A stretch of DNA of 64,000 bases from Spirulina sp. Lineage in GTDB: Bacteria; Cyanobacteriota; Cyanobacteriia; Phormidesmidales; Phormidesmidaceae. The stretch lies in contig JBIPSI010000002.1 in assembly GCA_044070495.1 (NCBI GenBank), forward strand, positions 64,001 through 128,000, read 5' to 3'. How positions within the stretch are numbered: the first letter of the stretch is position 1; every line of letters begins with the position of its first letter. The notes below the pieces were generated by a model that was given only the letters and a program-made list of their open reading frames with translations, did not search any database and was not told the origin of the DNA. This document shows positions 1 through 64,000 of this stretch, one piece after another. The position numbers were made by a program, and so were the translations under genes.

Positions 1-704
1 TGATCGCCAGGGTCAGCCCAGGGGTTGAGGAAGGAGATAATCCGTTGGCGTTGGTAGGTTTTGAGGCTGACGCTGAGGGTAGCGGTGGCCAAGCCGCTAA
101 AGGCCGCCAAACCTACGTAGCTGTAGGGTAAACCTGCTGCTAAGGCAATCAGCCAGAGGGTGAGGCCGCAGATGGCCGCTGTACTCAGGTTGGGCTGAAG
201 CAGAATGGCGGCTAAAATCGCCACAAAAATCCCTAGCCAGGTGAGGCGGTTGCGCCAGGTGAGCTGATCCCAACGGCCAAACAATCGTGCCCCTTGGAGC
301 ACCAAGCAGGGCTTCAGCAACTCCGAAGGCTGGATCATAAACGGCCCCAGGGGCAGCCAGCGGGTGGCTCCGTTTACCGTTACCCCCAGGGCTGGAACTA
401 GGGTGAGCAACACCAGACCAAACAGCACTATCAGCACTAGGCCCGCCCCCCGCAGCAGTCGATCTAGGGGCGTGTGGACAATGCGGTTGAAGATCACTAG
501 GCCCACCGTCACCCACATCATCTGCACGAGAACGTAGTGCAGCCCGTGGCCCTGCTCTGTGATGGAAACGGCGTAGGAAGCGGAAAACAGGATCAGCAGC
601 CCGAAGCCCAGCCACAGGAAGGTGAGCCAACGCAGCCAGCGGGCCTCCGCCGACCATTCGGCCACGGTGGGATCGAGCCAGGGAATAACGTGCGTGAGTT
701 TCAA
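1..704 (-). CDS. ftsW: Cell division protein FtsW (SEDS family), 3' end runs off the window
   Basis: Not in the ORF track. Manual translation from TTG at 704 gives MKLTHVIPWLDPTVAEWSAEARWLRWLTFLWLGFGLLILFSAS...TYQRQRIISFLNPWADP, typical of cyanobacterial FtsW. Confidence 0.88.
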   Translation of the reverse strand, partial: MKLTHVIPWLDPTVAEWSAEARWLRWLTFLWLGFGLLILFSASYAVSITEQGHGLHYVLVQMMWVTVGLVIFNRIVHTPLDRLLRGAGLVLIVLFGLVLLTLVPALGVTVNGATRWLPLGPFMIQPSELLKPCLVLQGARLFGRWDQLTWRNRLTWLGIFVAILAAILLQPNLSTAAICGLTLWLIALAAGLPYSYVGLAAFSGLATATLSVSLKTYQRQRIISFLNPWADPGD

Positions 705-784
705 CCGAAGATCCCTCAGTAATGGGCTAGGTGGGGTGGGCTGGATGGGCTGATGGGGATGGGCAACCCAAATTTTCAGGGTCA

Positions 785-903
785 GTATAGCCGAGGAACC
801 GCTGAACGACACAGAATTTCCCGGAACCGTGGGTAAAGAAACCCGGCTTCTCGGCTATACAGCCCACGATCTCGCAGGTAGCCAGCCAGCAACCGGGGTT
901 TTC
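785..903. repeat. Structured intergenic repeat, diverged AGAAACCCGGTTTCT family
   Basis: GTATAGCCGAG (785) pairs with CTCGGCTATAC (850-860); AGAAACCCGGCTTCT and AACCGGGGTTTT motifs resemble the copies at 11218 and 16862. Confidence 0.6.
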
Positions 904-922
904 GCCCCAGGACACCGATGGC

Positions 923-2512
923 CTAGGCGGTTTCCGCCATCCGATCCGGCAGTCCCTCCAGGAGGGGGGCTAGGTCTTGCTTGAGCTGGCCAGCCCGGAT
1001 AAATTCGGCATAGGTGTCGGCCTCAATGGCCAGCAGTTCTTCCCGCAGTTGTTCCGAGGCGTAGCGCTGGATTTCGGGGTGTTTATGCTCCAGATCGACG
1101 AGGTTTTCCTGGACTTCCTTCAGTTGTCCGGCCACCAAAGCCCGCTGATAGCCGACAAATTCCGGGTCAAATTCCTGATTATCCTGAATTTCATCGAGGC
1201 GTTGCAGCACTCGCGTCAGGGCCACCCGCTGGGCGCTCATCTGCTGATATTCCACCCGTAGGGGCTGGTCGCCTAGGAGGTTGAGGGCCTCTAGGAGCGG
1301 TTTAGTGGTCAAGCCCTGCACCAGCAAGGTAAACAGCATCACCCCAAATACCACGCCGATCACTTCCTGCCGTTCGCCCAACACCGCTGGCACACTCAGG
1401 GCCAGGGCCACCGACACCGATCCCCGCAGCCCGCCCCACCAGAGGACGGTTTGCCCCGCCAGCGGCAGATCCATCTCTGGCCCCGTGACGGCATTACTGA
1501 GGGCACCCAGGCCGTAGACGCTGATGGCACGGGCGATCACCATAATCACAATGGCGACAAAAATCTTGTCGAGGTTGGCCATCAGCCCCGCAAACTGCAC
1601 CTGGTCGCCAATCAGCAAAAAGACGATGGAATTGATGAAAAACGACACAAACTCCCAAAATTCCGATACCACCAGGCGGGTACGGGGGTTCATGCCGATG
1701 CGGGAGCCAAAATTGCCTAAAATCAGCCCCGTGGTGACCACAGCGATCACCCCGGATCCGCCCAATTCCTCCGCCACCAAGTAGGTGCCGTAGGCCGATA
1801 CTAGGGTAAGGGACTGCTCCACTAGGGGAATATCAAAGCGCTGGGTGAGGAAGGAAATACCAAAGCCAATCAGCCCACCAATGCTGATCCCCACCCCCAC
1901 AAACACCAGGAATCGGGCCACGGTTACCGCCGCATCCAACGGTTCTAGTCCCAGGGCCAAGCCCAGCAGCAGGTTGAAGGCTACCACCGCCACGCCGTCG
2001 TTAAATAGGCTCTCCCCCTCCATAATCGTGGTGAGCTTTTTATCGACGCCCAACTCCCGGAACAGCGCCACCACCGACACCGGATCCGTGGCCGATAGAC
2101 TAGCCCCCACCAGCAAAGCCGTCGCCAGGGATGCCCCGGCAAAGGTTTGCAACCCCCACACCAAACTGCCCACGCAGATCACCACGCCGAAGATGGCATA
2201 GAGCACCACGGGCACCGCATACTGCTTCAGCTTTTGCCAGTTCAGGTTCCAGGCGGCCTCAAACAGCAGCGGCGGCAAAAAGATAAAGAGAATCAACTGG
2301 GGCGACAGGTTAATCAGCCGCACATCCACCAGGGCCAGCCCCAGGCCCACCAGCAGCAACAGCAGGGTATAGGGGATATTTCGCAGCACGCTAAACATGC
2401 GCGACAGGGTGGCTACCCCCAGGGAAACCGACAGCACCAGGCAAAATTGGCGCAGATGGGCCTCAATACTGGGATCCTCCAGCATCGATTCAACGGCAAG
2501 TAAAAGACTCAT
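923..2512 (-). CDS. Na+/H+ antiporter, CPA1/NhaP family
   Basis: LPPLLFEAA, ATDPVSV, EGESLFNDG and GGLRG motifs; many TM helices. Confidence 0.93.
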   Translation of the reverse strand: MSLLLAVESMLEDPSIEAHLRQFCLVLSVSLGVATLSRMFSVLRNIPYTLLLLLVGLGLALVDVRLINLSPQLILFIFLPPLLFEAAWNLNWQKLKQYAVPVVLYAIFGVVICVGSLVWGLQTFAGASLATALLVGASLSATDPVSVVALFRELGVDKKLTTIMEGESLFNDGVAVVAFNLLLGLALGLEPLDAAVTVARFLVFVGVGISIGGLIGFGISFLTQRFDIPLVEQSLTLVSAYGTYLVAEELGGSGVIAVVTTGLILGNFGSRIGMNPRTRLVVSEFWEFVSFFINSIVFLLIGDQVQFAGLMANLDKIFVAIVIMVIARAISVYGLGALSNAVTGPEMDLPLAGQTVLWWGGLRGSVSVALALSVPAVLGERQEVIGVVFGVMLFTLLVQGLTTKPLLEALNLLGDQPLRVEYQQMSAQRVALTRVLQRLDEIQDNQEFDPEFVGYQRALVAGQLKEVQENLVDLEHKHPEIQRYASEQLREELLAIEADTYAEFIRAGQLKQDLAPLLEGLPDRMAETA

Positions 2513-2731: not shown

Positions 2732-4084
2732 CTACCGCATGGTGACGAACTCTTCGGCGGAACTGGGGTGGATGGCGATGGTGGCATCGAAGTCGGCCTT
2801 GGTGGCTCCCATCTGCACGGCAATGGCCACGCCCTGGATGATTTCGGCGGCGTAGTCCCCTACCATGTGCGCCCCCAATACCTTATCGGTGGGCTGGTGA
2901 ACAATCAGCTTCATCAGGGTGCGGGCTTCCATGCCGGGGACGCTGTAGTACATGGGCCGGAAGCGGGAGCGGTAGATTTTGATGCTGTCCTCGCCGTACT
3001 TGGCCTTGGCCTGTTCCTCGGTCATCCCCACGGTGCCCATTTCGGGGGTGGTGAAGACGGCGGTGGGCACAATGGCGTGGCTCATCAGGCCCGGTTTGTT
3101 GCCAAATTCGGTATCGGCAAAGATGCGTCCTTCCTTGATGGCCACGGGGGTAAGGTTCACCCGGTCGGTGACATCGCCCACGGCGAAAATGTGGGGCACG
3201 GCGGTACGGTGGTGTTCGTCTACGGCGATGGCTCCGTGGTGGATTTCAACGCCTGTGTTCTCTAGGCCAAGACCCTGAACGTTGGGGCGGCGTCCGGTGG
3301 CGGCAAGGCTGACGGCATCGGCTAGGATGTGCTCCTGCTTTTCGGGGGTGGCGATGGTGACATCCACCCCGGCCTCGGTTTTGTGGATGGCGATCAGTTC
3401 GCAGTGGGTCATCAGGGTGATGCCCTGCTGGGTCATGGCGTTTTGAATTTCGGTCCGCAGTTCTTCGTCAAAGCCGCGCAGAATTTTGTCGCCCCGCACC
3501 ACCTGCACCACTTCGGTACCCAGGCCGTTGAGAATACAGGCAAACTCGCTGCCGATGTAGCCGCCGCCCAGGATCACCACCCGCTTGGGCTGCTGGGGCA
3601 GGTGAAAAATGTCATCGGAGGTGATGGTGTATTCAATGCCGGGAACATCGGGCTTGACGGGCTTGCCCCCCACGGCAATCAGAATTTTTTCGGCGGTGAC
3701 TTTCTGATTGCCCACCTCCAAGGTGTGCTCATCCACAAAGCGGGCATAGTGCGGAAAGAGTTGCACCGAAGACTTGTCCAGCATGGTGCCGTAGATGCCG
3801 TTGAGGCGGGTGACTTCGGTATCCAGCGCCTTAACCAGGGTGGGCCAGTCAAAATGGCGATCCCCCACCGTCCAGCCATAGCCAGCGGCGGCCTCAAACT
3901 GGTCGGGGAAATGGGAGGCATAGACCATCAGCTTTTTGGGCACACAGCCCCGGTTCACACAGGTTCCCCCCAAGCGTCCGGCCTCGGCAAGGCCCACCTT
4001 GGCCCCATACTCGGCGGCTCGACGGGCGGCGGCAATGCCCCCGGATCCGCCCCCGATCACAAATAAATCAAAATCATAGGCCAT
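2732..4084 (-). CDS. gor: Glutathione-disulfide reductase
   Basis: GGGSGG FAD site, GGTCVNRGCVPKK redox disulfide, HPSSAEE C-terminal motif; start placed at MAYDFDL. Confidence 0.95.
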   Translation of the reverse strand: MAYDFDLFVIGGGSGGIAAARRAAEYGAKVGLAEAGRLGGTCVNRGCVPKKLMVYASHFPDQFEAAAGYGWTVGDRHFDWPTLVKALDTEVTRLNGIYGTMLDKSSVQLFPHYARFVDEHTLEVGNQKVTAEKILIAVGGKPVKPDVPGIEYTITSDDIFHLPQQPKRVVILGGGYIGSEFACILNGLGTEVVQVVRGDKILRGFDEELRTEIQNAMTQQGITLMTHCELIAIHKTEAGVDVTIATPEKQEHILADAVSLAATGRRPNVQGLGLENTGVEIHHGAIAVDEHHRTAVPHIFAVGDVTDRVNLTPVAIKEGRIFADTEFGNKPGLMSHAIVPTAVFTTPEMGTVGMTEEQAKAKYGEDSIKIYRSRFRPMYYSVPGMEARTLMKLIVHQPTDKVLGAHMVGDYAAEIIQGVAIAVQMGATKADFDATIAIHPSSAEEFVTMR

Positions 4085-4250
4085 GGTTCTATCCCCCTGG
4101 TTGGTCACACTATTTCCTAGTGTATCGAGGTTGAGCAAACCCTATGGGTTGAATGAATCACAAATTTGATGGAGTTGGGAATCGGGGTTGCCTCGTTGAA
4201 ATGGGGTAGGAATGCGGTCTGAAGGTGAATGTGGTTGAGGCCGTCGAGCC

Positions 4251-5417
4251 TTAATTCGGCACAATTTCTGTAACCACTTGGCCACCGTTATTCTGGCCGC
4301 CATCCACCACAAAGGTGCCCTCCTGCAAGCGGCCAATCCCCCGACTACCGTTGAGGTTGAGGGCCGGATTGACCTGTTGATAATTCACCCGTCCCTCGGC
4401 CACCAGAATTTGGTCAGGAATCGTCCAGGTGAGTTGATCGGTGGTGAGGCGGGATTGGGGTTGCTGCCGCACCGCCACCACGTCTTGGCTGACGCGAATC
4501 ACCTCGTTGGCCAAATCCATCGCCCCCTGGCGACCCGTTACCACTAGGCCATCGGTAGGACGAGTTAGGGTCAGCGGTTGATTTACATTAATTTGCTCCT
4601 CGGCCACCCGCCACTCCAGCACCTCACTGGTGAGGGTGAGGGGTAACGCGAGGAACTGCATGGTGACCGCCCCCTGAAGGGTAGCCACGTCTTCGGCTAG
4701 ATTCACTTGCCCCCGCTGCCCCTGCACCACCTCAGTAATGGTGGCGTCTTTAAATTGTTCAATGCGCAAGGGCTGAGGGCTGTCGATCATCTCTTGATCC
4801 CAGGACCACAGCAATTGTTGGGCTTGCAGCTTCAGCCAGGGTTCAGTTTTGGGGTCTTCCACCACGGTGTTGGCTACCACATTGCCCAACAGTTCCATGC
4901 GGTTTTCGCGATTGAAGACCCGGAATTCATCCGCCGTGGCCCGCAGTTGGGGATGGGTTCCGGTCACGGCTTGGCGCATTACCAGCACATCTTCCTGGGG
5001 CCGCCATTCCATTTCCTTGCCCCGCAGCACCGCACCGTTTTTAACCCCCGTGGCCACAATATTGCCGCGCAAAATAATGGTGTTGCCGTTGTCGCGCATT
5101 TCCCCGGTGTCGGCAGTGACATTGTAGATCACCTCGCCATCTTGAAAAAGCTCGCCATCGGGGCGGGTAAACATGGCCACGGATCGATCCGGGCTGTAGG
5201 TGGCTTCCTCCGCCTTCACCCGCCACAGTAGAACGCCGTTTTCGTCGGGCTGTTCTAGGGTGACATTCCGCAGGGTAAACTCCGCCTCCACCGATGACTC
5301 CGGTGTATCGGTAGACGGAGGGGGAGCCAAGGGGCCAAGCCCTAGCCAATACATCCCTAACCCAAGAACGGCAGCTACCCCAACCCCCACTGTAATCTGC
5401 TGTTTTTTCCCCATCAT
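4251..5417 (-). CDS. lptC: LPS export protein LptC (long cyanobacterial form)
   Basis: N-terminal TM anchor, repeated beta-jellyroll-like sequence, position after metG and the NYN gene. Confidence 0.8.
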   Translation of the reverse strand: MMGKKQQITVGVGVAAVLGLGMYWLGLGPLAPPPSTDTPESSVEAEFTLRNVTLEQPDENGVLLWRVKAEEATYSPDRSVAMFTRPDGELFQDGEVIYNVTADTGEMRDNGNTIILRGNIVATGVKNGAVLRGKEMEWRPQEDVLVMRQAVTGTHPQLRATADEFRVFNRENRMELLGNVVANTVVEDPKTEPWLKLQAQQLLWSWDQEMIDSPQPLRIEQFKDATITEVVQGQRGQVNLAEDVATLQGAVTMQFLALPLTLTSEVLEWRVAEEQINVNQPLTLTRPTDGLVVTGRQGAMDLANEVIRVSQDVVAVRQQPQSRLTTDQLTWTIPDQILVAEGRVNYQQVNPALNLNGSRGIGRLQEGTFVVDGGQNNGGQVVTEIVPN

Positions 5418-5462
5418 CGTGCCGCTAGGGATAGCCCCGCTCCGAATGCGCCGCTATCTATC

Positions 5463-6101: not shown

Positions 6102-6193
6102 GGGATTTTTATCCGGTTGTATTAAATCAGAGGGGTTTTAAAGGGGCTTTTATGGGGCAGTAATAATGTATTCTCCGTGGGTTAAGGCGGGGG

Positions 6194-7786
6194 CTAATCC
6201 ACGACTTCAGAAATCTCAATCCGCTGAAAAATAGGCTTGGCCTCCCCTAGGGATTGCCCTGGGGGCAGCATTCCCCAGGTAGACTGCTCAGCAAAGGACA
6301 GATCATCAGCAATGGAACGCTGGTTAAAATCCACCCCATAGCCAAGCTGCCGATAAATTTCGTTGCTCAGCCCCGGCACCACGGGCGACAACAGGTAGGC
6401 GGCAAGGCGTACCGATTCGAGGACAGCGTATAAAACGGCTTCGGTTTCCGCCTGTTTCCCTTGCTTAAAGAGACTCCAGGGGGCTTCGTCGTCAAGGAAC
6501 TTATTGCTGGCCTGCACCAGTCCCAGAACAGCGGTACAAGCTTGGCTAAATTTCAACTGCTGATAGGCCTCGGCAACGGTGTTTCCCAAGGCTTTACCCA
6601 TGCCCTTTAACCGATGGTCATCCGTTAAAGACATAGGATCAACAGAGGGAACCTTTTCTCCACAATAACGCGCCGCCATCTTTATCGTGCGATTTAACAG
6701 ATTTCCTAAATCATTGGCCAAATCAGCGTTGAGAACGTTGATGAACCGGGTTTCGTTAAAATCCCCGTCTTTGCCAAATTCAATTTCTCGCAGAAAGTAG
6801 TAGCGGACGGCGTCAGGCCCATATTTATCAACCAATTCCACAGGATCGAGGGTATTTCCTAGGCTTTTGCCCATTTTCAAGCCATCTTTGGTTAAAAAGC
6901 CATGGCCAACCACCTGCCCAGGCACAGGCAACCCCGCCGACATCAGCATGGCGGGCCAATACACGGCATGAAACCGCAGAATATCTTTGCCAATCAGGTG
7001 CACATTAATGGGCCACCACTGGCTCGTTGCGGCCTCTAAATTGGGGGTTTCGTTGGGGTCTTGCAGGGCGGTCACATAGCCTAAAAGGGCGTCAAACCAG
7101 ACGTAGAGGGTGTGGTGGGGATCCGTGGGCACCGGAAAGCCCCAGTCCAAATTGACGCGAGAGATAGAAAAGTCTTGCAAGCCCCGTGTGACAAAGCTCA
7201 AAACCTCATTGCGGCGGGTTTCGGGCTGAATGAAATCGGGCCGTTCGGCATAGAGTTGCTCTAGTTTTTCCTGGTAGTTAGACAGCCGAAAGAAATAATT
7301 CTGCTCATCCCGCCATTCCACGGTTTTGTTGGGATGGAGGGGGCAGCGGTGGTCATCCAACAAATCCCGCTCTTCTTTAAATTCTTCGCAGGAGACGCAG
7401 TACCAGCCCTGCTGCTGCCCCTGGTAAATATCTCCTTTTTCCCACACCCGCTGAAAAAACTCCCGCACAATTACCTCATGGCGGGGGGATGTGGTGCGAA
7501 TAAATCGATCCCATTGAATATTTAACTTCTGCCACAGGCTTTCAAACCCCGCCACCACCTGATCGCAATGATCCTGGGGCGAAATTCCCCGTTCTTCGGC
7601 GGTGCGGAGAATTTTTTGGCCGTGCTCATCGGTACCGGTAATCATCAACACGGGCTGCCCCGTCAGGCGATGGAACCGGGCAACCACGTCCGCCGCAATG
7701 GTGGTGTAGGCGCTGCCAATGTGGGGCAGGTCGTTGACGTAGTAGAGCGGGGTGGTGATGGCGAAGGGGGCAGCGTTGAAGGTCAT
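6194..7786 (-). CDS. metG: Methionine--tRNA ligase
   Basis: YYVNDLPHIGSAY (HIGH), YVWFDAL, KMGKS; start placed at MTFN. Confidence 0.96.
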   Translation of the reverse strand: MTFNAAPFAITTPLYYVNDLPHIGSAYTTIAADVVARFHRLTGQPVLMITGTDEHGQKILRTAEERGISPQDHCDQVVAGFESLWQKLNIQWDRFIRTTSPRHEVIVREFFQRVWEKGDIYQGQQQGWYCVSCEEFKEERDLLDDHRCPLHPNKTVEWRDEQNYFFRLSNYQEKLEQLYAERPDFIQPETRRNEVLSFVTRGLQDFSISRVNLDWGFPVPTDPHHTLYVWFDALLGYVTALQDPNETPNLEAATSQWWPINVHLIGKDILRFHAVYWPAMLMSAGLPVPGQVVGHGFLTKDGLKMGKSLGNTLDPVELVDKYGPDAVRYYFLREIEFGKDGDFNETRFINVLNADLANDLGNLLNRTIKMAARYCGEKVPSVDPMSLTDDHRLKGMGKALGNTVAEAYQQLKFSQACTAVLGLVQASNKFLDDEAPWSLFKQGKQAETEAVLYAVLESVRLAAYLLSPVVPGLSNEIYRQLGYGVDFNQRSIADDLSFAEQSTWGMLPPGQSLGEAKPIFQRIEISEVVD

Positions 7787-8173
7787 AGAACGGTGTGTAA
7801 AGGTTAGCCTTCGGGCAGTGGAAAACCCTGGTGAAGCGGAAATCATCCCTCTGCCCTAGGCAAAGGCAATCAAACCGCAAAAGGCCATCATACAAGGAAC
7901 CTGAACCCCTTGCCTAATCAGGCATCGAAGGGGGTAAAGGTAGGTTGTGTCGGCCATAGTGTAGCCCCTGTTTTGGTGGTGTCCTCCGCAGCGCCCAGAA
8001 GATTTAACCATTGCGTTTCTAACGTGGATGTGCTGTGCCTGGACTATGCAGGCTATAGGAGACTCCCATGGGGAGAATCCGTAGGCTTTGGCCATCCCCC
8101 GCTAGAATGGAGGTGTCGAAATGCTTCATACTTTGTTACAACAAGTAGAGATGTTGGGTTGGTATTAACCTCT

Positions 8174-9290: not shown

Positions 9291-9339
9291 GGTCAATCTC
9301 CTGGCTAACTGACACAACGCCGAAAAGCCTTGATCTCTC

Positions 9340-9456: not shown

Positions 9457-11181
9457 ATGACGACCTCCCATCCCCTCGGTTCGGTCATTCAAGGATCCCT
9501 TAGTCAGGGGTTAGAAATTCGCCTACATCCCGATATTTCGGTGGAAGAGATGCGGGTAGGCAAGTTTTTGGTGGTGCGGGGGCGGCGATCCCAGTTTTTT
9601 TGCATGTTGACCGATGTGGCCTTGGGCACGGGTAGCCAGCGAATTTTGGCCCATCCCCCAGAGCCAGAAAACCTGTTTTTGCAGGAGGTGCTGGCGGGCA
9701 CGGGCACCTATGGCACCTTGACCCTAATTCCCATGCTGATGTTTACGGAGGGAACCGGGGATAGGGAACAGGAAACAGGAAACAGGGGACGAAAAAATGC
9801 TGCCAAGGATAGCGGAGGAAGCTACATAGCCCACAGTAATGCGGAGGTAGAGCTACTCCCGGTGAAAACGATTCCGGCCCACTTTAGCCAGGTCTATGAG
9901 GCGAGCGAGCGGGATTTTCGGATTATTTTTGGCTGGGAAGATGATCCCCATCGGCGCAATTTTGCCATTGGTCAACCGATTGATATGGAGGTACCCGTCT
10001 GCCTAGATTTAGACCGCTTTGTGGAACGCAGCAACGGCATTTTTGGTAAATCCGGTACCGGCAAATCCTTTTTGACGCGGTTGCTGCTGGCGGGCACCAT
10101 TCAGCGGGGGGCGGCGGTGAATCTCATCTTTGATATGCACTCTGAGTACGGCTGGGAGGCGGTGAGTGAGGGCAAGCAGTTTAGCACCGTCAAGGGGTTG
10201 CGCCAATTGTTTCCGGGGCAGGTGCAGATGTTTACCCTGGATCCAGAATCGACCCAGCGGCGAGGGGTAAATGATGCCCAGGAATTATTTATTGGCTTCG
10301 ACCAAATTGATGTAGAAGATTTGGCCTTGGTGCGGGGAGAACTGAATCTTTCAGAGGCCAGTCTGGAGAATGCGATTATCCTGCGTAACGAATTTGGCAA
10401 GTCCTGGATCAACCGTTTGTTGATGATGACGAACGAGGAAATTCAGGAATTTTGCGAAACCAAAATGGGCAGCAAATCTTCGATTATGGCTCTGCAACGG
10501 AAGCTGACTCGATTAGCCGACTTGAAGTATCTACGCAACACCAGCACCACCAACTACGTGGGTAGAATCCTGGCTGCTTTGGATGAGGGGCAGCATGTGG
10601 TGGTGGAATTTGGATCCCAGTCCACCATGCTGGCCTATATGCTGGCGACAAACGTGATCGCCCGCCGCATCCATGCCAGCTATGTGCAAAAGGCCGACCG
10701 CTTTCTACAAACCAAAAATCCCGTGGATCGGCCCCGCCAACTGATGATTACCATCGAAGAGGCCCACCGTTTTCTCGACCCTGCCACCGCCAAGCAGACT
10801 ATTTTTGGCACCATTGCGCGGGAAATGCGGAAATACTTCGTTACCCTGCTGGTAGTGGATCAGCGGCCCTCCGGCATCGACAACGAGGTGATGTCTCAAA
10901 TTGGCACCCGCATCACCGCCCTGCTCAACGACGAAAAGGACATTGACGCCATTTTTACGGGGGTTTCCGGTGGGCAAAACCTGCGATCCGTCCTGGCCAA
11001 GCTGGACTCTAAACAGCAGGCGCTGATCCTTGGCCATGCCGTGCCCATGCCCGTGGTGGTACGCACCCGTCCCTACGATGCCACTTTCTACGCCCAGGTG
11101 GGCCAAACCACCTGGGAAGACCTGCCCGACGATCTGGTTCTCCCCGCCGCCGCCCAGGCCAAGGCCGATTTGGGTCTATAA
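9457..11181 (+). CDS. HerA/FtsK-like ATPase (DUF87)
   Basis: HAS-barrel-like N-terminus, Walker A GKSGTGKS, DMHSEY, IEEAHRF, DQRPS. Confidence 0.9.
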   Translation: MTTSHPLGSVIQGSLSQGLEIRLHPDISVEEMRVGKFLVVRGRRSQFFCMLTDVALGTGSQRILAHPPEPENLFLQEVLAGTGTYGTLTLIPMLMFTEGTGDREQETGNRGRKNAAKDSGGSYIAHSNAEVELLPVKTIPAHFSQVYEASERDFRIIFGWEDDPHRRNFAIGQPIDMEVPVCLDLDRFVERSNGIFGKSGTGKSFLTRLLLAGTIQRGAAVNLIFDMHSEYGWEAVSEGKQFSTVKGLRQLFPGQVQMFTLDPESTQRRGVNDAQELFIGFDQIDVEDLALVRGELNLSEASLENAIILRNEFGKSWINRLLMMTNEEIQEFCETKMGSKSSIMALQRKLTRLADLKYLRNTSTTNYVGRILAALDEGQHVVVEFGSQSTMLAYMLATNVIARRIHASYVQKADRFLQTKNPVDRPRQLMITIEEAHRFLDPATAKQTIFGTIAREMRKYFVTLLVVDQRPSGIDNEVMSQIGTRITALLNDEKDIDAIFTGVSGGQNLRSVLAKLDSKQQALILGHAVPMPVVVRTRPYDATFYAQVGQTTWEDLPDDLVLPAAAQAKADLGL

Positions 11182-13232: not shown

Positions 13233-14825
13233 ATGACCCTTGCCATTGATTTTGGAACCAGCAATACCGTGATCAGCCGCTGGAATGCGGCCCTCCAGAG
13301 ACCCGAAACCGTTGCCCTCCCAGGCTTAAGTTTGGTGCTGGGCAACGATCCGCCCCTGGTACCTAGCTTGGCCTACGTAGAGCGGCGAGGGCCAGAGGGC
13401 CTAGTGGTGGGTCAAGCGGTGCGGGATCGCGGTCTGGATGTCACCACCGATCCCCGGTTTTTTCGCAATGTAAAGCGGGGCATTGGCGTTCCCTGGCGGG
13501 GTTTTTTGCCCGAAATCGACGGTCAAACCGTTACCTTTGATCAGGTCGGCCAGTGGTTCCTAGAAGCCGTTCTTACCCAGGCCAAGGCCGAGACCAACGA
13601 AGCCGACTGCCTGGTGTTCACCGTTCCCGTAGACAGCTTTGAAGCCTATCGATTGTGGCTAGGGGAATTAGCGGAACGGCTGGAGTTTGGCCAAGTACGC
13701 ATGATTGACGAACCCACCGCCGCTGCCCTCGGCTATGGCCTCACCCAGGAGAAAACCCTGCTGGTGATGGACTTTGGCGGCGGCACCCTAGACTGGTCGC
13801 TGGTGCAGTTGGCCACTCCGGTGGAAAAGGCACCGATGGGGTTCATGCTGAAGTGGGGCCGCAAACCCGCCGATCAACCCAGCACCCAAAAGCCCCAAAC
13901 CGCCCGTGTCCTGGCCAAGGCTGGAGAAAACCTGGGCGGAGCCGACATCGACAACTGGCTGGTGGATTACTTTCACCAAACCCAGGGCATTCCCATTTCG
14001 GCCCTCACCCAACGGCTGGCGGAACGGTTGAAGATTCGGCTTTCCGAAGCCCCCACCGCCCAGGAAGTCTACTTTGACGACACCGCCTTCGACACCTACG
14101 ATCTCAGCCTCAACCGCGATCAGTTCGACCAGATTCTGCACCAGCACCAATTCTTTGACCGCTTAGAGGCCAGCCTTAACCAAGTGCTCCAGCAAGCTCG
14201 CCGCCAGGGGGTAGCCCCAGAGGACATCGAAGCGGTGTTGCTGGTGGGGGGCACCGCCCAAATTCCCGCCGTTCAAGCCTGGGTGCAGCAGCGCTTCCCC
14301 GCTGAAAAAATCAAAGCCGACCGCCCCTTTGAAGCCGTCGCCCAGGGGGCACTCCAGGTCAACCTAGGGCTTGAGGTGGAAGACTTTCTCTACCACAGCT
14401 ACGGCATCCGCTACTGGGATCGACGCAACAATTGCCACGGCTGGCACCCCATCATTCAGCAGGGCCAACCCTACCCCATGGCCCAGCCCGTGGAAATCAC
14501 CCTAGGGGCCTCGGTGGAAAAGCAGCCCAGCCTCGAACTGATCCTTGGCGAACTGGGGGAAGCCGCCACCCAAACCGAGGTGTATTTTGAAAACGGTCGC
14601 CTAGTCACCCGCCAACTTTCTGAGGCCAACCGCAGCGTCCAGCCCCTCAACGACAAGGACGGTGCCCGCACCATTGCCCAACTCAATCCGCCCGGATTCC
14701 CTGGCAGTGATCGGGTGCGCGTTCTGTTTTTCGTCGATGCGGATCGCCTATTGCGCATCACCGTCGAGGACATTTTGACCGGGGATACGCTCATGACCAA
14801 CCAAGCCGTCGTCAAACTCAGCTAG
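13233..14825 (+). CDS. Hsp70 family protein (DnaK-like, no lid)
   Basis: [32 protein letters not shown] motifs. Confidence 0.9.
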
Positions 14826-18507: not shown

Positions 18508-20349
18508 TTAGGCAATGGAGGCCATGCGAACGTCACTCGTGGCTAGCAGTTGTTGAAGCTCGTCGGCATCGACGGTTTCTTTGTCCACCAGCATCCGAGC
18601 CAGTTGGTCAAGGATGTGGCGGTTGCTCACTAGCACATCCTTGGCACGACGATAGGCTTCGTCCACCAGGGAGCGCACCTCGGAGTCGATGGTAGCGGCG
18701 GTTTCTTCGGAGAAATCGCGCTCGGCGGCGATGTCGCGGCCTAGGAACATGTTGCCCTGCTGACGGCCAAGGGCCACGGGGCCGAGCTTGTCACTCATGC
18801 CGAAGCGAGTCACCATTTGACGGGCCACACGGGCCACCTGTTGCAGGTCATTGGAAGCACCCGTGGTCACTTCCTCTTCGCCGAAGATGATCTCTTCAGC
18901 AATGCGGCCACCGAGGGCAACGGCCATCTGGTTTTGCAGGTAGGAGCGGGAGTAAAGGCCCGACTCTAGCCGATCTTCGCTGGGGGTAAACCAGGTGAGA
19001 CCACCCGCCCGACCACGAGGAATGATGCTGATCTTCTGCACGGGGTCGTAGTCCGGCATTAGGGCACCAACGAGGGCATGGCCTGCTTCGTGGTAGGCGA
19101 CTAGTTCTTTGCGGCGTTCGCTCATGACGCGGTCTTTCTTCTCAGGGCCAGCCAGCACCCGGTCGATGGCATCGTTCACCTCATCCATGGAGATTTCGGT
19201 GAGGTTGCGGCGGGCGGCCAGAATCGCGGCCTCGTTCAGCAGGTTAGACAGGTCGGCCCCGGTGAAGCCAGGGGTACGACGGGCGATCTTTTGCAGATCC
19301 ACATCCTTGGAGAAGGTCTTGCCACGGGCGTGGACGTTGAGGATTTCCAGGCGTCCGGCATAGTCGGGCCGATCCACCACCACCTGACGGTCGAATCGAC
19401 CGGGGCGCAGCAGGGCGGCATCTAACACGTCGGGGCGGTTGGTGGCGGCGATGATGATGATGCCCGTGTTGCCCTCAAAGCCGTCCATTTCGGTCAGCAG
19501 TTGGTTGAGGGTTTGTTCGCGCTCGTCGTTGCCGCCGCCAAGACCCGCACCGCGCTGACGGCCTACGGCGTCAATCTCGTCGATGAACACGATACAGGGC
19601 GCGTTGGCCTTGGCCTGTTCAAATAGGTCGCGGACGCGAGAGGCACCGACCCCCACAAACATCTCCACAAACTCGGAACCGGAGATAGAGAAGAAGGGCA
19701 CCCCAGCTTCGCCAGCCACAGCCTTGGCCAGCAGGGTTTTACCCGTCCCCGGAGGGCCAACCAACAGCACACCCTTGGGAATTTTGGCCCCCACGGCGGT
19801 GAAGCGGTCAGCGTTCTTGAGGAAGTCCACCACTTCGGTCAATTCCAGTTTGGCCTGCTCAATACCCGCCACATCACCAAAGGTGACCTGGGTTTGAGGC
19901 TCCATCTGCACCCGGGCCTTGGACTTACCAAAGTTCATGGCCTGGTTGCCGGGGCCGTTTTGGGCGCGGCGCAACACAAAGAACAGCACCACCAACAGCA
20001 GTACCGGGATCAGCAACGTGCTGAAGGCGCGAACCCAAACGCTATCGTCGCTTTGGGGCAGCACCACAATGTCCACATTGTTGGTTTCTAGGGTGTTGAT
20101 CAGTTCAGGATCGTTGGGAAGGTTAACGACGATCTGGCCGTTACCCTCGGGATCGGTGAACCGAGCCTTGGTGCGGTCAGAGCTGATGCTGACCCGCTCG
20201 ATTTGATTACCTTGCACAGCATCGAGGAACTTGCTGTAGCGCCAAGTCTGGGTTTCGACCCCAGATCCATCGAAAATAGCCGTGGCCAGAGCGATGACCA
20301 CAATGACCAGCAGTGCGTATAGACCTGCATTTCTCCACCGTTTGTTCAC
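18508..20349 (-). CDS. ftsH: ATP-dependent zinc metalloprotease FtsH, FtsH3-like
   Basis: [13 protein letters not shown]-terminus, [13 protein letters not shown]. Confidence 0.96.
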
Positions 20350-50517: not shown

Positions 50518-52329
50518 ATGGCTTCACCCGCTCCGTCCGTTTCCGCCGATAGCCAGCCCATGGTGCTGCCCCGCACCAGCGAATCAGAGGCGCTGAAGCG
50601 GATTCGCCACACTTTTTCCCACGTCATGGCAATGGCGGTGCAACGCCTGTTTCCCAAGGCCCAGGTCACCATTGGCCCCTGGATTGACTACGGTTTTTAC
50701 TACGACTTCGACAGCCCCGAACCCTTCACCGAGGCGGATCTGAAGGCGATTAAGAAGGAGATGATTAAGATCATCAACAAAAAGTTGCCCGTCGTACAGG
50801 AAACCGTGACACGGGATGAGGCCCAGCGGCGCATCGAAGCCCTAGGGGAACCCTACAAGCTGGAAATTCTGCAAGACCTTCAGGAACCCATCACCCTCTA
50901 CCACCTGGGGGAGGAATGGTGGGATCTCTGCGCTGGGCCGCACGTCGCCACCACCGCCGACCTCAATCCCAAGGCCTTTGACCTGGAAAGCGTGGCCGGA
51001 GCCTACTGGCGGGGGGACGAAAAGCGGGCACAACTTCAGCGCATCTACGGCACCGCCTGGGAAACCCCGGAGCAACTCCAGGAATACAAACGGCGGCGGG
51101 AGGAGGCCAAACGGCGGGATCACCGCAAGCTGGGCAAGGAACTGGGCTTGTTTATCTTTGCTGATGAGGTGGGGCCAGGGCTGCCGCTATGGACACCCAA
51201 GGGCACCATCCTGCGGGAAACTTTGGAGAACTTCCTAAAACAGGAGCAGGTGAAGCGGGGCTATTTGCCTGTGGTAACGCCCCACATTGGCCGGGTGGAT
51301 CTGTTCAAAACCTCCGGCCACTGGCAGAAGTATAAGGACGACCTCTTCCCGATGATGGGCGAAAACGAGGACGAGAGCTTTGTGCTGAAGGCGATGAACT
51401 GCCCCTTCCACATCCAGCTCTACAAAGCCTCCCTGCGCTCCTACCGGGAATTGCCCCTGCGCTTGGCGGAATTTGGCACCGTCTACCGCTACGAGCAATC
51501 CGGCGAGCTGGGCGGCCTGACGCGGGTGCGGGGCTTCACCCAGGACGACGCCCACCTGTTTGTCACCCCCGACCAGTTGGACGATGAATTTCTCAAGGTG
51601 GTGGACTTGATCCAGTCCACCCTGCGGGCGCTGAAGTTGGATACGTCCTTCCGGGCACGGCTGAGCTTCCGGGATCCCGACTCCGACAAATACATCGGTT
51701 CTGAAGATGCCTGGAACAAGGCGGAAAACGCCATTCGTCGCGCCGTGGAAACTTTGGGAATGAAGCATTTTGAGGGCATTGGCGAAGCCGCCTTCTACGG
51801 CCCCAAGCTAGATTTCATCGTGCGGGATGCCCTGGATCGGGAATGGCAACTGGGCACCGTGCAGGTGGACTACAACCTACCCGAACGCTTCGACCTAGAA
51901 TACGTAGCCGAAGACGGTTCCCGCCAGCGTCCGGTGATGATCCACCGCGCCCCCTTTGGCTCCCTGGAGCGGCTGATCGGCATTTTGATTGAGGAATACG
52001 CCGGAGACTTTCCCCTTTGGCTATCCCCTGAGCAAATGCGGCTGCTGCCCGTCACCGAGGAACAAGCCAGCTTTGCCCAGGCCGTAGCGGATCAACTCCT
52101 GGCCCAAGGGGTACGGGTGATGGTGGATACCAGCGGGGATCGCCTCGGCAAAATGGTGCGCAACGCCGAAAAGGCCAAAGTGCCGATTATGGCGGTGATT
52201 GGGGCCAAGGAAGTGGAGGCCAACGCCCTCAGTATCCGCACCCGCGCCCAGGGCGAGCTGGGGTCGATCCCCGTCAGTGAGGTGCTTGAGCGCGTCACCC
52301 AGGCCATCCGCAAACGGGAAGACTTTTAG
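50518..52329 (+). CDS. thrS: Threonine--tRNA ligase
   Basis: DLCAGPHV, RDHRKLG, MNCPFH, RVRGFTQDDAH, HRAPFGSLER. Confidence 0.97.
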   Translation: MASPAPSVSADSQPMVLPRTSESEALKRIRHTFSHVMAMAVQRLFPKAQVTIGPWIDYGFYYDFDSPEPFTEADLKAIKKEMIKIINKKLPVVQETVTRDEAQRRIEALGEPYKLEILQDLQEPITLYHLGEEWWDLCAGPHVATTADLNPKAFDLESVAGAYWRGDEKRAQLQRIYGTAWETPEQLQEYKRRREEAKRRDHRKLGKELGLFIFADEVGPGLPLWTPKGTILRETLENFLKQEQVKRGYLPVVTPHIGRVDLFKTSGHWQKYKDDLFPMMGENEDESFVLKAMNCPFHIQLYKASLRSYRELPLRLAEFGTVYRYEQSGELGGLTRVRGFTQDDAHLFVTPDQLDDEFLKVVDLIQSTLRALKLDTSFRARLSFRDPDSDKYIGSEDAWNKAENAIRRAVETLGMKHFEGIGEAAFYGPKLDFIVRDALDREWQLGTVQVDYNLPERFDLEYVAEDGSRQRPVMIHRAPFGSLERLIGILIEEYAGDFPLWLSPEQMRLLPVTEEQASFAQAVADQLLAQGVRVMVDTSGDRLGKMVRNAEKAKVPIMAVIGAKEVEANALSIRTRAQGELGSIPVSEVLERVTQAIRKREDF

Positions 52330-52470: not shown

Positions 52471-53166
52471 ATGGCTCGTTACGTTGCCGCCGATCCCTAC
52501 CCCTATCCCTACGATGGCGATTTGCGTCCTGAAAATACGGCCCTGATCATCATCGATATGCAGACCGACTTCTGTGGCGAAGGCGGCTATGTGGATAAAA
52601 TGGGCTACGACCTGTCGCTAACCCGTGCCCCCATTGAGCCGATTAAAGCGGTGCTGGCAATGATGCGGGATCAGGGGTTCACCATTATTCACACCCGAGA
52701 AGGTCATCGCCCCGACCTGTCGGATCTTCCGGCCAACAAGCGCTGGCGATCCCAGCAAATTGGGGCGGGCATTGGCGATCCTGGCCCCTGTGGACGTATT
52801 TTGGTGCGGGGGGAACCGGGCTGGGAGATCATCCCCGAACTGGCCCCCATGGAGGGCGAAGTGGTGATCGACAAGCCAGGGAAAGGATCCTTCTACGCCA
52901 CGGATTTAGACTTGATCCTGACGGTCAAGGGCATTCGCAACATCATTTTGACAGGCATTACCACCGATGTCTGCGTCCACACCACCATGCGCGACGCCAA
53001 CGACCGGGGCTATGAATGTCTGATGCTCTCCGACTGCACCGGGGCTACCGACTACGGCAACTACCTAGCGGCCCTAAAAATGATCAAAATGCAGGGCGGC
53101 GTATTCGGTTCCGTGGCCGAATCCGCTGAACTGCTGAAAGTTCTCGCCTCAGGGGGCTTAGCCTAG
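52471..53166 (+). CDS. biuH: Biuret amidohydrolase (isochorismatase-like cysteine hydrolase)
   Basis: [45 protein letters not shown] triad and BiuH-type signature residues. Confidence 0.82.
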
Positions 53167-60796: not shown

Positions 60797-60932
60797 GGGA
60801 ACCTCTCGATAAAAGCAGGACGATGGGGGCGGGCTGGGTTTGCGCCTCATTCAACCATCCTTAGCCTAACCGCAGCCCAACCGCACCGGATCCTAGACTA
60901 GGGCAGCGTTGGACGAGGGGTGGCCCCATCCC

Positions 60933-63218
60933 CTAACGGCTGAGGGAGAATTGGGTGGGCAGCGAGACCGTAAAACAAGTGCTGTGGGCATCGCTGGCGA
61001 CGGCCACTTCGCCCCCCAAATGCCGACAAAGCTTGCGTACCAAGGCCAGACCAAGACCTGTGCCGCCCTGCTTCCAGGGATCGGCACTGGGCACTCGGTA
61101 GAACTTGTCAAAAATGCGGGTCAGTTCCGATGGGGGGATGGTAACCCCGGTGTTGGTCAGCACGAACTGCACCTGGCTTTGGTGGGAGTGGGGGACAGGT
61201 TCCACATGGATGCTGATGTGCTCACCGGGGGGGGTGTATTTGCAGGCGTTGTTGAGCAATTCCGCTAGAATTCGCTCCAGGCTGGCGAGATCGGTGTGCA
61301 CCACGGGCAAGGTAGGGGCCGTGCTCAGCGTCAGGGTTTGATCTCGGCTTTTGGCACGGGTGATGAAGCTATCCATCAAGCCTGGTAGCCAGGTTCTAAG
61401 CACGATGGGTTCGGTTTGGACGGGGTGGTTGCCCACATCGAGGCGCTGCAAATCGAGCAGGTCGTTAATGAGGCTAATCTCCCGCTCGCATTCCTCTTGC
61501 AGGATGTGGTAGTAGCGGGCGATGCGGCTTTGTTCGGCCTTAGGCTTGTGTAGCTCATCGGCTAGGCTACATTCCTGGGTGAGGGTGACCCCCAACAGTT
61601 GCAGCGCCACCCGCATACTCGTGACAGGGGTGCGCAGTTCGTGGGAGACGGTGCTGAGGAAGTCGTCCTTGAGGGTGTTGAGCCGTTCTAGTTCCGCCAC
61701 CTGCGACTGGGCCGCTTCGTAGAGTCGGGCCTGACGAATGGCAATGGCGCACTGGTTGGCCACCTGCTGCACCAGCCGGATCTCAATGTCGCTAAAGCCG
61801 TAGTCGCGGCCATTGATCAGCCACAGATCCCCTAGCACGCCCCGGTCGTCCAAAACCGGGCAGGCCAGCATGGCCACATAGCCCCGGTCGGGGTTGGGTT
61901 CCATGGAGCAAAACTGGAAGTATTGGCCGTTGAGCAACTGGTCGTAAACCTCTGGGAAGGCTTCCATCTGGGCCACGCGCCCCTGGTAGGCGGGGATGGA
62001 ACTGTTGTAGCTGTTGTACTCGTAGTAAATCGTAGAGGTACCCTGCTCCAAATCATAAAGAGCGGTGTTTGACCCCTTGGCCCCTAGGGCTTCGGTCAGT
62101 TCCTCCACCGCCGTCAGCATAATTTGGTTGACATCTAGGCTGTCGCGCACCCGGTCGGTGATGCGTTTGAGGGTGGCTTCAAAATCTAGGGCGGTTTGCA
62201 GTTGTTCGGTGCGCTGGGCGACCTGCTGCTCTAGAGCGGTGTTGAGTCGCTGCACCTGGTTGTATAAACGGGCTTGCTTAATGGCGCTGCCCACCTGGGT
62301 AGACACCTCCCGCAGGGTTTCAATTTCCCAGCTTTGCCAGGGGCGAGAACCGCTGCGGTGAAGGGCGCATACCAACCCATAGAGGGCGTCTCCCTGCACG
62401 ATAGGCACCACCAGCCCCGCCTGCACCTCCATCTGGGCCAGCCGCTCGCGATAGGCCGACGGCAAGCGCGCGGTGTGGATATCGTCGATCACCTGAATTT
62501 CCCCCTGACAAGACCGCACCAGATCCTGGGCAATCAGGTTTAGCGCCGCTAGGGAATCTCCCAACGTAAAGGGCATGGGCGTTGCGGCAGACTCAGCCAC
62601 GACGCCTCGGTAGTCAGGATCGAAGCTGTAGAACACAACCCAGTCCACCTTCAGAAATCGCCGCACCTCGTTGACGGTGGTTTGCAGCAATTCCTCTGGG
62701 TTCATCGACTGCAATAGGTGTTGGGCAATCGCCCCCAACAGCCGCTCCCGCTCCGACTGTCGCCGCAGGGTTTGTTCCACCTGCTGCTGGGCGGTAATGT
62801 CTTGCAGCGTCACCATCAGCAGCGGGGCTTCCGCTGTCGCCGCTACTACGGGGGCAATGCTCACAATCAGAGCCCGTGGAGGCCCATCCCCACTGGGCAA
62901 CAACACCTGCGTGGATTGCCGCTGCCCCGTTGCCAATGTTTGCCGTTCTGCGGCCAAAAAGACCTCCGCCACCGCCGGAGGCAAAATATCTAGCTCCGAC
63001 TTCCCTACCAAGTCCTCCGTGGTGTAGCCTAGCAATTCTCGGTAGGCCCGATTGAGAAACAGCCAACTGTGGAGATGATTTTTAATCCCCACCGGGGCCG
63101 CCACCACATTGAATAATTGATCAAAGCCATCCTGCAACAGTCGCCCCTGGCAGTCGCGACAGTGATCGAGATCTTGGGCAGGCAGGGAAGATGCCACAAA
63201 GGGGGTTGGGTTAGTCAT
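60933..63218 (-). CDS. PAS-GAF-GAF sensor histidine kinase
   Basis: FLSTVSHELRTP, ELLNNACKY, GTGLGL. Confidence 0.92.
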   Translation of the reverse strand: MTNPTPFVASSLPAQDLDHCRDCQGRLLQDGFDQLFNVVAAPVGIKNHLHSWLFLNRAYRELLGYTTEDLVGKSELDILPPAVAEVFLAAERQTLATGQRQSTQVLLPSGDGPPRALIVSIAPVVAATAEAPLLMVTLQDITAQQQVEQTLRRQSERERLLGAIAQHLLQSMNPEELLQTTVNEVRRFLKVDWVVFYSFDPDYRGVVAESAATPMPFTLGDSLAALNLIAQDLVRSCQGEIQVIDDIHTARLPSAYRERLAQMEVQAGLVVPIVQGDALYGLVCALHRSGSRPWQSWEIETLREVSTQVGSAIKQARLYNQVQRLNTALEQQVAQRTEQLQTALDFEATLKRITDRVRDSLDVNQIMLTAVEELTEALGAKGSNTALYDLEQGTSTIYYEYNSYNSSIPAYQGRVAQMEAFPEVYDQLLNGQYFQFCSMEPNPDRGYVAMLACPVLDDRGVLGDLWLINGRDYGFSDIEIRLVQQVANQCAIAIRQARLYEAAQSQVAELERLNTLKDDFLSTVSHELRTPVTSMRVALQLLGVTLTQECSLADELHKPKAEQSRIARYYHILQEECEREISLINDLLDLQRLDVGNHPVQTEPIVLRTWLPGLMDSFITRAKSRDQTLTLSTAPTLPVVHTDLASLERILAELLNNACKYTPPGEHISIHVEPVPHSHQSQVQFVLTNTGVTIPPSELTRIFDKFYRVPSADPWKQGGTGLGLALVRKLCRHLGGEVAVASDAHSTCFTVSLPTQFSLSR

Positions 63219-63782
63219 AGGGTTAGCGGAGGTCTAACGGGTGGGGCGCGCTAGGGTGAGACAAACCAAGGAGCAATGCAAAGGAGAAGTAGGCTCTGAA
63301 TTAGCTCTGAATTAACTGTGCCCTAAATACAACCCCAACAAACAGGGCTAGGTCACGTTGATCCGGCGTGGGCAGACGATAGAGGTAGAAAAACGCGTTT
63401 GTTATGGAGGAAGTAATGCCGAAACTTGGTTATGACGTAGCTTTTAATGATAGCAATGACGGGTCTGGGAACCTTCGGGTAACGCGAAGGATGTGAAGAT
63501 TGCCGATGTAGCTATTCTATCGCTGCGTGGCCAGGCCGATGCCTCTGCTTGGTCAAGGGACTACCTCAACCGCCCTGAAGCCGTCCAGGGGAATGGAACG
63601 CTACACCGCAAAACGGGAACTCCCCTCATTACAATAAGTAGAACGGCAATTGTCGAACTATCCCTTGAATATAAATTGACATCGGTTGGGCAGGGTAAGC
63701 CTCTGGCCCGCCGCTCAACCCGTTGATCCGACAGCTAAGATGGCTGTTCTGCCCTCATTCCCGTTACCAGGCCAACTGTTCC

Positions 63783-64000
63783 ATGACCCAAGCCGCCGCC
63801 CTGCCCGCCTCTGAAATTGCCAAAGCCGTGGAGCAACGGCGCAATTTCGCCATCATTTCCCACCCCGACGCCGGGAAAACAACGCTGACGGAAAAGCTGC
63901 TGCTGTACGGGGGTGCCATCCAAGAGGCCGGGGCGGTGAAGGCCAAACGGGCCCAGCGCAGCGCCACCTCAGACTGGATGGAACTGGAGCAACAGCGGGG
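63783..64000 (+). CDS. prfC: Peptide chain release factor 3, 5' part
   Basis: Manual translation [28 protein letters not shown]...[11 protein letters not shown]. Confidence 0.95.

Follow-up and report, generated by a model that had tools for sequence, protein, structure and literature searches.

Absence of HIP1 from a 64-kb cyanobacterial sequence accompanies a clade-wide purge of CGATCG and many other restriction-type palindromes

The function of the highly iterated palindrome HIP1 (GCGATCGC, with the core CGATCG) of cyanobacteria has been debated for some thirty years. According to sections of Elhai 2015 (PMC4390886) and of PMC13756078, orphan CGATCG methylases (M.Ssp6803I, DmtC) are linked to HIP1 and are its usual partner in many cyanobacteria, and in the latter text pilus and competence genes are linked to it as well. 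Two described losses come closest to the case presented here. For the loss in Calothrix PCC 7103, infection by a CGATCG-specific restriction enzyme was proposed as the cause (sections of Elhai 2015, PMC4390886), while Leptolyngbya sp. BL0902 (Nodosilineales), in which HIP1 'lacked enrichment', is counted among seven independent losses in part of the text of PMC13756078 (2026). The present analysis concerns the absence of HIP1 from a 64-kb stretch of cyanobacterial DNA (contig C2, positions 64001-128000, of the genome G000), hereafter called the window, and the purge of CGATCG from the genome to which it belongs.

Neither CGATCG nor GCGATCGC is present on either strand of the window (1..64000), which contains 362 GATC. 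On the forward strand 69 GATCG were found, preceded by G (36), T (18) or A (15) and never by C; an earlier note on this sequence had arrived at 55-60. In 100 dinucleotide-preserving shuffles a mean of 11.6 CGATCG (standard deviation 3.4) was obtained, for which the Poisson probability of finding none is 9e-6. Naive base composition gives about 19, as the earlier note had correctly calculated, and the expectation as a whole ranges from about 12 to 21. The forms GCGATCCC (9) and GGGATCGC (6) together account for the 15 one-mismatch sites that the note had reported, at the positions named there. All one-mismatch HIP1 forms in the window amount to 39, compared to 26.4 +/- 4.9 after shuffling, and at least 39 were reached in one of the 100 shuffles. 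The description of the core as completely absent is borne out for the window and does not hold for the organism, since the genome retains 208 CGATCG, including 104 GCGATCGC; the observation was thus partly confirmed, real in the window and overstated for the genome. At the genome's own rate, 1.1-2.5 CGATCG are expected in 64 kb (probability of zero 0.08-0.33), and a window with none is therefore typical of G000.

The assembly of G000 comprises 5,313,730 bases in 74 contigs with 56.7% G+C. Genome-wide expectations were taken from a maximal-order Markov model, unless a second-order model is named. The 208 CGATCG are set against 1786 expected, an observed to expected ratio (O/E) of 0.116. Ten islands of accessory genes, totalling 91 kb, hold 117 of these sites as well as 77 of the 104 copies of GCGATCGC, and outside the islands 91 sites are left in 5.22 Mb (O/E about 0.05). 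Removal so far under the neutral expectation agrees with the claim of the earlier note that the core was actively purged. The full element, with 104 copies against 177 (second-order) or 91 (maximal-order) expected, is not over-represented. HIP1 forms which keep the core and differ in the flanks are 10-18 times too rare (31 vs 392, 20 vs 219 and 16 vs 294), and one-step variants with a broken core lie 1.1- to 2.2-fold above second-order expectation, in line with a fossil layer left behind by lost HIP1 sites. GCGATCCC/GGGATCGC could be ruled out as a specially enriched word at the genome level: its 586 copies compare to 572 expected (1.5-fold over the second-order model), and it ranks second after GCCATCGC/GCGATGGC, the commonest one-off form with 979. 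A codon argument suggests that GCGATCCC/GGGATCGC would be the escape by synonymous change to be expected in one of the reading frames. GATC as such is near expectation (28240 vs 32042, O/E 0.88). No over-represented palindromic 8-mer could be identified as an alternate repeat; the highest-ranking palindromic 8-mers lie at expectation (GCCATGGC 636 vs 667, GGGATCCC 143 vs 139, CAGGCCTG 52 vs 56), which rules out that GGGATCCC or another such word has replaced HIP1.

The genome-wide word counts also showed that CGATCG is not a lone word. It ranks 13th among avoided 6-mers, and the twelve others that are more depleted are all 6-bp palindromes. GGCGCC is the most avoided word of all, with 8 copies observed and 2002 expected. 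The remaining eleven are CGGCCG (8 observed, 1858 expected), CCGCGG (7, 998), GTCGAC (11, 850), GGGCCC (92, 2976), GCCGGC (42, 1104), CTGCAG (78, 1878), TTCGAA (41, 603), CAGCTG (91, 1136), CCCGGG (124, 1508), CGCGCG (40, 469) and CTCGAG (75, 813). Twenty palindromes fall under an O/E of 0.26, at about 0.4-25% of expectation. Among the 2072 strand-collapsed 6-mers, the lowest 14 are palindromes without exception; of the lowest 22, 21 are either palindromic or the non-palindromic CYCGRG word, and the 22nd, GAGCCC, is part of GRGCYC. Non-palindromic members of degenerate specificities are avoided too, namely CCCGAG (O/E 0.14, CYCGRG), GGACC (0.07, GGWCC), GAGCCC (0.27, GRGCYC) and ACCGGC (0.43, RCCGGY), with GRGCYC and RCCGGY less deeply affected than CYCGRG and GGWCC. 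CGACCG/CGGTCG, on the other hand, is at expectation (O/E 0.98); therefore avoidance is directed at CGATCG itself, not at CGRYCG, and a BsiEI-type specificity was ruled out as the cause. The list resembles a catalogue of what we take to be Type II recognition sites, and the spectrum is typical of Type II restriction. The depletion of CGATCG seen by the earlier note is thus real, but the more than 20 restriction-type words purged together with it and the 208 surviving sites had escaped notice. The HIP1 gap looks like the scar of restriction pressure, not like a special event at one word.

A ThrRS comparison puts G000 among the Nodosilinea-group cyanobacteria, with 96% amino-acid identity to Phormidium sp. 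FACHB-1136, the nearest record with a name, and 90% to Nodosilinea sp. P-1105, and the host is a filamentous cyanobacterium of this group. For CGATCG counts 41 genomes of the same GTDB genus were drawn, and 18 others were sampled for GCGATCGC. Only four of the 41 proved to be CGATCG-poor, i.e. G000 (208), G005 (154), G036 (235) and G044 (67), each with about 1000-1300 copies of a reversed-word control, while the other 37 contain 2787-14844. Similarly, 17 of the 18 further congeners carry 1704-8331 copies of GCGATCGC and the remaining one 72, compared to 104 in G000. One more genome, G035, reached via a locus, has 294 CGATCG. G005, G036 and G044 are the closest DNA relatives of G000 (79-93% identity), and in an ftsH tree (1.5 kb, 26 genomes) the four poor genomes form one clade with support 100/99, nested among HIP1-rich species. 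The loss of HIP1 is thus derived, from HIP1-rich ancestry, in a four-species clade within a HIP1-rich genus, and the earlier note was right that this lineage had lost the element. A protein of G044 has 100% identity to an NCBI entry named from Leptolyngbya sp. BL0902, and one purged member of the clade appears to be this genetically tractable strain. Word by word, the avoidance spectra of G005 (286-kb sample) and G044 (400-kb sample) nearly equal that of G000. Some lineage differences were found as well: ACCGGC has an O/E of 0.43 in G000, 0.06 in G005 and 0.01 in G044, and GACGTC of 0.36, 0.24 and 0.60, respectively. In a 226-kb sample of the HIP1-rich congener G004, CGATCG reaches an O/E of 1.59 and most other avoided words 0.3-0.8, and a spectrum of the G000 type was not seen. 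Intermediate CGATCG densities occur in some relatives (G033 and locus L026, G003, G047), with 2663 in 6.9 Mb, 4228 in 6.0 Mb and 2787 in 4.4 Mb; the 21.8 kb of locus L026 are free of HIP1. Partial or independent losses may be the reason.

The fate of ancestral sites could be followed by alignment. The G004 sample contains 234 HIP1 sites, 64 of which could be aligned to G000, and CGATCG is kept at none of them (0/64). At 21 of the 64, G000 carries a one-step variant: GCCATCGC/GCGATGGC seven times, GCGACCGC/GCGGTCGC four times, and GCGATCCC/GGGATCGC, GCGATCAC/GTGATCGC, GCGAACGC and GAGATCGC twice each. In the window, GCGATCGC is present in at least two HIP1-rich relatives at 18 positions. G000 has CGATCG at 0 of the 18 and GATC at 6, the share of one-third predicted when a hit may fall on any of the six core bases, and a special retention of GATC at former HIP1 sites was ruled out. 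The suggestion of the earlier note that GCGATCCC/GGGATCGC sites lie where relatives carry HIP1 was followed in a check set beforehand; four of the 15 could be aligned, a small sample, and all four fall at GCGATCGC. These are GCGATCCC at 9585..9592 (GCGATCGC in 7 of 7 aligned HIP1-rich relatives; ACGATCTC and GCGATCTC in sister species), GGGATCGC at 13423..13430 (3 of 3 aligned HIP1-rich relatives), GGGATCGC inside thrS at 52136..52143 (13 of the 16 HIP1-rich relatives selected and, in a wider set, 25 of the 42 that aligned; GCGACCGC in the sister G005) and GCGATCCC at 52746..52753 (5 of 5 aligned relatives), all on the forward strand. The sites at 9585, 13423 and 52746 represent relics of HIP1.

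Further sites bear on the timing of the loss. At 7505..7512 (forward strand), another of the 18 positions, G000 has TCGATCCC, the same state as all three sampled sister species, where 4 of 6 HIP1-rich relatives have GCGATCGC. At 1370..1377 (forward strand) it has CCGTTCGC and the sisters GCGGTCGC and CCGATCAC, with GCGATCGC again in 4 of 6 HIP1-rich relatives; these differing replacements point to independent loss after the species split. No HIP1 position was found in the ftsH alignment in any of the 26 sequences, and CGATCG positions were used instead, with the changes compared among the clade and 22 HIP1-rich congeners. The two overlapping former CGATCG at 19160..19169 are CGGTCG and CGATGG throughout the four-member clade, compared to CGATCG in 16 and 15 of the 22 congeners. 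CGATCC at 19370..19375 is likewise common to all four members (CGATCG in 13 of 22), and at 19805..19810 G000 has CGGTCA and the three sisters CGGTCG (CGATCG in 18 of 22). Since the replacements are identical in all four species at three of the four ftsH sites, part of the purge apparently predates the split. In a 184-kb alignment of G000 and G005 (85.3% identity), 520 of 1253 control palindrome sites (41.5%) are shared. A simple, unfitted turnover model predicts that, if the pressure had stopped when the species separated, each lineage would have regained about one-third of the equilibrium count. The O/E values found are 0.004-0.25, and the pressure therefore seems to have continued. The purge thus appears to have begun before the four species split and to have gone on afterwards.

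The CGATCG-rich islands carry accessory genes of several kinds. The island on contig C16 encodes CHAT/CHASE2/DUF928 proteins and a two-partner secretion pair, and the island on C35 CHAT-TPR proteins and S8 peptidases. A high-GC island (C40:14000-31000, locus L210) carries a contractile injection system or tailocin-like cluster with a tail sheath, baseplate J, a V-type spike domain and an RHS-repeat protein of 1398 amino acids, and a low-GC (50.6%), HIP1-bearing island (C12:52000-61000, locus L211) a cyanobactin-type cluster with a PatG-like subtilase (PatG_C, PatG_D) and a C39 peptidase/ABC exporter. The C16 island shows 81-94% identity to HIP1-rich congeners, compared to about 75-87% for the housekeeping genes of the window against the same genomes, and is missing from the three sister species. 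This higher identity and the absence in the sisters identify the C16 island, the one island tested, as a recent acquisition from HIP1-rich relatives. The nine others are probably imports too, as their accessory gene content and embedded position suggest. Five pairwise alignments to the matching regions in HIP1-rich genomes gave 39 CGATCG on the island side and 62 on the side of the relatives in all. Within the C16 island, CGATCG of the G004 copy is kept in G000 at 10 of 26 sites, compared to 40% for any 6-mer. A repeat of about 130 bp was also noticed, with copies 97-99% identical at C16 (about 99150-99282 and 52977-53108), C40 (497-629), C14 (119739-119873), C11 (104613-104742) and C7 (40166-40294 and 115091-115220). 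Several copies with 84-93% identity are present in the three sister species, and among the listed matches from HIP1-rich genomes only a weak one (72%, G043). It may be a clade-specific miniature mobile element.

A restriction-type reading is favoured by the depth of the depletion, as neutral decay would stop near an O/E of 1, and likewise by the palindromic spectrum, its recurrence in the samples of the sisters, the derived state of a single clade, the presumed cognate systems in it, the apparent persistence after the split, the lack of CGATCG at all 64 and all 18 ancestral positions, and the cause proposed for Calothrix PCC 7103. Restriction-driven site avoidance over a long time, by restriction-modification (R-M) systems gained and lost and with CGATCG (PvuI-type) as one of more than 20 targets, is the probable explanation. 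The clade would have descended from HIP1-rich ancestors and undergone long, repeated exposure to R-M systems that come and go, a PvuI-type activity presumably among them, and this exposure would have selected synonymous or neutral changes destroying each site. For CGATCG itself, we infer restriction as the selective agent.

Whole-genome profile searches of G000 for methylase and endonuclease families gave one methylase match each for PF00145, PF01555 and PF02086, and two MmeI-like proteins. At C51:4060-6838 (locus L201) lies an intact Type II pair, with a C5 methylase of 386 amino acids directly followed by an endonuclease of the RE_Eco29kI family (213 amino acids; PF09517, E 5.5e-70). A third gene after the pair encodes a GIY-YIG protein of 291 amino acids, and the surroundings comprise bidirectional-hydrogenase-like genes and a PIN/transposase patch. 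We take Eco29kI to recognise CCGCGG, one of the most depleted words (7 vs 998). The PF01555 methylase (C27) is an orphan in a housekeeping neighbourhood, retained by nearly all congeners; it has a DPPY motif, which we take to mark an adenine-type methylase. The Dam-family methylase (C13) is also an orphan. The two MmeI-like fused methylase/endonuclease proteins are encoded at C3:92000-100000 (locus L205, 1346 amino acids) and C11:20500-23400 (locus L204, 910 amino acids), the former in a block resembling a defence region, together with two helicases (one of them SNF2) and proteins with an MZB and an EVE domain.

The sister G005 has a C5 methylase adjacent to an enzyme of the BbrUII/HgiDII family (E 4.7e-64), which presumably recognises GTCGAC (11 vs 850 in G000), and a PF01555 methylase beside a MutH/Sau3AI-like protein. 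In G044, a PF01555 methylase adjoins a protein whose 76%-identical homologue carries the source name 'NheIR protein', and two further C5 methylases have neighbours of no recognised family, for which a PDB sequence search gave nothing below E 0.9. No homologue of the endonuclease candidates of G005 and G044 was found in G000, and a relic of an R-M system beside dnaG in the window, as in G044, was ruled out: only dnaG is syntenic and nothing else aligns. R-M content therefore varies from species to species, and the avoidance profile is common to the clade. For two avoided words, systems that we take to be cognate exist in the clade, the Eco29kI-family pair of G000 and the BbrUII/HgiDII-family pair of G005.

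The earlier note had named loss of the CGATCG methylase as a possible cause, and this is unsupported. PF00145 has no match in 23 of the 41 congeners, including HIP1-rich genomes that are 99-100% complete (G007, G016, G041), and therefore the absence of a recognisable CGATCG cytosine methylase is not a mark of the poor clade. Several of the PF00145-negative congeners have a DPPY-type PF01555 enzyme alone, and such enzymes are present in both groups. Abundant HIP1 in genomes with no recognisable CGATCG cytosine methylase may be common in the genus. A loss of pilus or competence genes is not evident as the reason either, PilQ, ComEC and PilM, the three families that this test covered, being intact in G000.

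Several results weigh against restriction-driven avoidance as the explanation. The PvuI-like restriction activity suggested by the earlier note found no counterpart: no CGATCG-specific endonuclease or methylase was recognised by profile search in G000 or beside the methylases at the loci analysed in G005 and G044, a weak negative, as no PvuI-family model is known in the libraries. No match in G000 was obtained for the NgoMIV, PstI/BsuBI, XhoI and PvuII families, in searches to which the controls barely responded and which are therefore weak as well. One classical Type II pair in G000 faces about 20 avoided words. The genome tolerates 117 CGATCG in acquired islands, where the C16 island shows erosion with no sign of rapid or strong cutting today, and the turnover argument for continued pressure uses a simple, unfitted model. 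For BL0902, little restriction barrier to conjugation is reported in part of the text of PMC3265524, and no homologue of a type II endonuclease of REBASE in part of PMC11298460. The interpretation in the earlier note was thus partly supported, correct in outline in that HIP1 was lost and its core purged, with the agent unproven, methylase loss unsupported and the scope too narrow.

An agent other than classical, methylase-protected R-M, such as solitary endonucleases tolerated since their sites are lacking, or an unrecognised nuclease or repair bias on palindromes, would suit several of these points: about 20 words purged with a single Type II pair in G000, four endonuclease families with no match, a pressure that seemingly outlasted the species split, and the report on the sister strain in PMC11298460. 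Such an agent is unlikely, however, as no gene of this kind was seen. In addition, the avoided words match known Type II specificities, degenerate ones included, with cognate pairs for two; R-M content differs between sisters, as gain and loss predict; and 8-124 copies of the most avoided words are tolerated, as are the 208 CGATCG. It is distinctly unlikely that selection against more than 20 words continues in genomes with at most a few cognate R-M systems each, protected by the absence of sites and not by methylation, whether through methylase-free endonucleases or through a very fast turnover of R-M systems at the population level. If this were true, HIP1, usually present in thousands of copies, would have proved fully dispensable and been overridden within one genus.

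Neutral decay supposes that the machinery creating or maintaining HIP1 (a CGATCG methylase, biased repair or DNA uptake) was lost and the sites mutated away. It is in line with the disappearance of HIP1 with no alternate palindromic 8-mer in its place, with the excess of core-broken one-step variants over second-order expectation, and with the survival of island sites near background (10 of 26 vs 40%). As a full explanation it is improbable and contradicted by the counts, since its endpoint would be the expectation and not an O/E of 0.05-0.12, and the core-keeping flank variants would not be 10-18 times too rare; moreover, methylase content does not separate HIP1-rich from HIP1-poor congeners, and PilQ, ComEC and PilM are intact. 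Neutral decay may account for the first step, the loss of enrichment, and not for the purge.

Methylation-driven mutation, by which 5-methylcytosine at CGATCG would be deaminated to T faster than it is repaired, is very improbable. In sections of Elhai 2015 (PMC4390886), the presence of a methylase accompanies site deficiency in 78% of cases for one methylase-target class. In G000, however, C to T is not dominant, with GTGATCGC/GCGATCAC making up only two of the 21 one-step variants, and the four ftsH sites show A to G, C to G or G to C changes. The only C5 methylase of G000 is paired with the Eco29kI-family endonuclease, and each of the many other purged words would need its own methylase. 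An assembly or binning artefact, with the HIP1-bearing stretches as contaminant contigs, is scarcely conceivable: the assembly is in 74 contigs and the 3.1-kb contig C74 holds 6 CGATCG, but most islands are embedded in long contigs that are CGATCG-poor on both sides, e.g. the 138-kb C16, with its island at 90-113 kb, and the 154-kb C12, the contamination estimate is 1.18%, and three further genomes show the depletion as well, including one assembled into 6 contigs with a chromosome of 4.3 Mb.

The clade provides a natural experiment within one genus, in which four purged species can be compared to 37 sampled congeners with thousands of copies. It shows that life without HIP1 is possible for a filamentous cyanobacterium that retains its pilus/competence genes and a Dam-type methylase, and it offers a way to test proposed roles of HIP1 as an uptake signal or a repair signal. 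The surviving copies mark at least one recently imported gene cluster, and probably others. The breadth of the avoidance against the few R-M genes is also a caution: a deep restriction history may lie behind a genome in which no restriction genes are annotated.

Like Calothrix PCC 7103, G000 has lost HIP1 within a HIP1-rich group, and CGATCG is below expectation in both. The differences concern the traces left behind. Calothrix PCC 7103 keeps a deleted pair of a CGATCG methylase and an endonuclease-like gene (sections of PMC4390886), and no such relic was found in G000. GATC is at 16% of expectation in Calothrix PCC 7103, compared to an O/E of 0.88 in G000, where a Dam-family orphan is present. 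Calothrix PCC 7103 has also gained GGCGCC as an alternate repeat, whereas in G000 this is the most avoided word and no alternate repeat is found. Unlike the usual pairing of M.Ssp6803I or DmtC with HIP1, the 23 genomes of this genus with no PF00145 match include HIP1-rich ones; abundant HIP1 without a recognisable CGATCG cytosine methylase is reported for four other strains in sections of Elhai 2015 (PMC4390886). For BL0902, the text of PMC13756078, as far as a term search of it extends, contains 'CGATCG', 'restriction' and 'underrepresent' 0 times and treats non-enrichment of the 8-mer only. The sections of PMC13756078 and PMC4390886 considered here thus do not cover the purge across the clade, its restriction-type breadth and persistence, or the island marked by HIP1; the supplements of both may hold per-genome counts that bear on them. 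G044, the genome matching BL0902, belongs to the same clade as G000, with 67 CGATCG and the same avoidance spectrum.

Avoidance of palindromes in prokaryotic genomes is said to have been described by Gelfand and Koonin in 1997 and by Rusinov et al. in 2015. Restriction-site avoidance was also treated by Rocha et al. 2001, as cited in sections of Elhai 2015 (PMC4390886). As in restriction-site avoidance in general, short palindromes matching Type II sites are under-represented in a lineage-specific manner in the present clade, and the avoidance can outlive individual systems. The clade differs from the usual picture in the unusual breadth and depth of the avoidance, as in G000, where some 20 words do not reach a quarter of expectation, four of them not even 2%, next to one visible cognate Type II pair.

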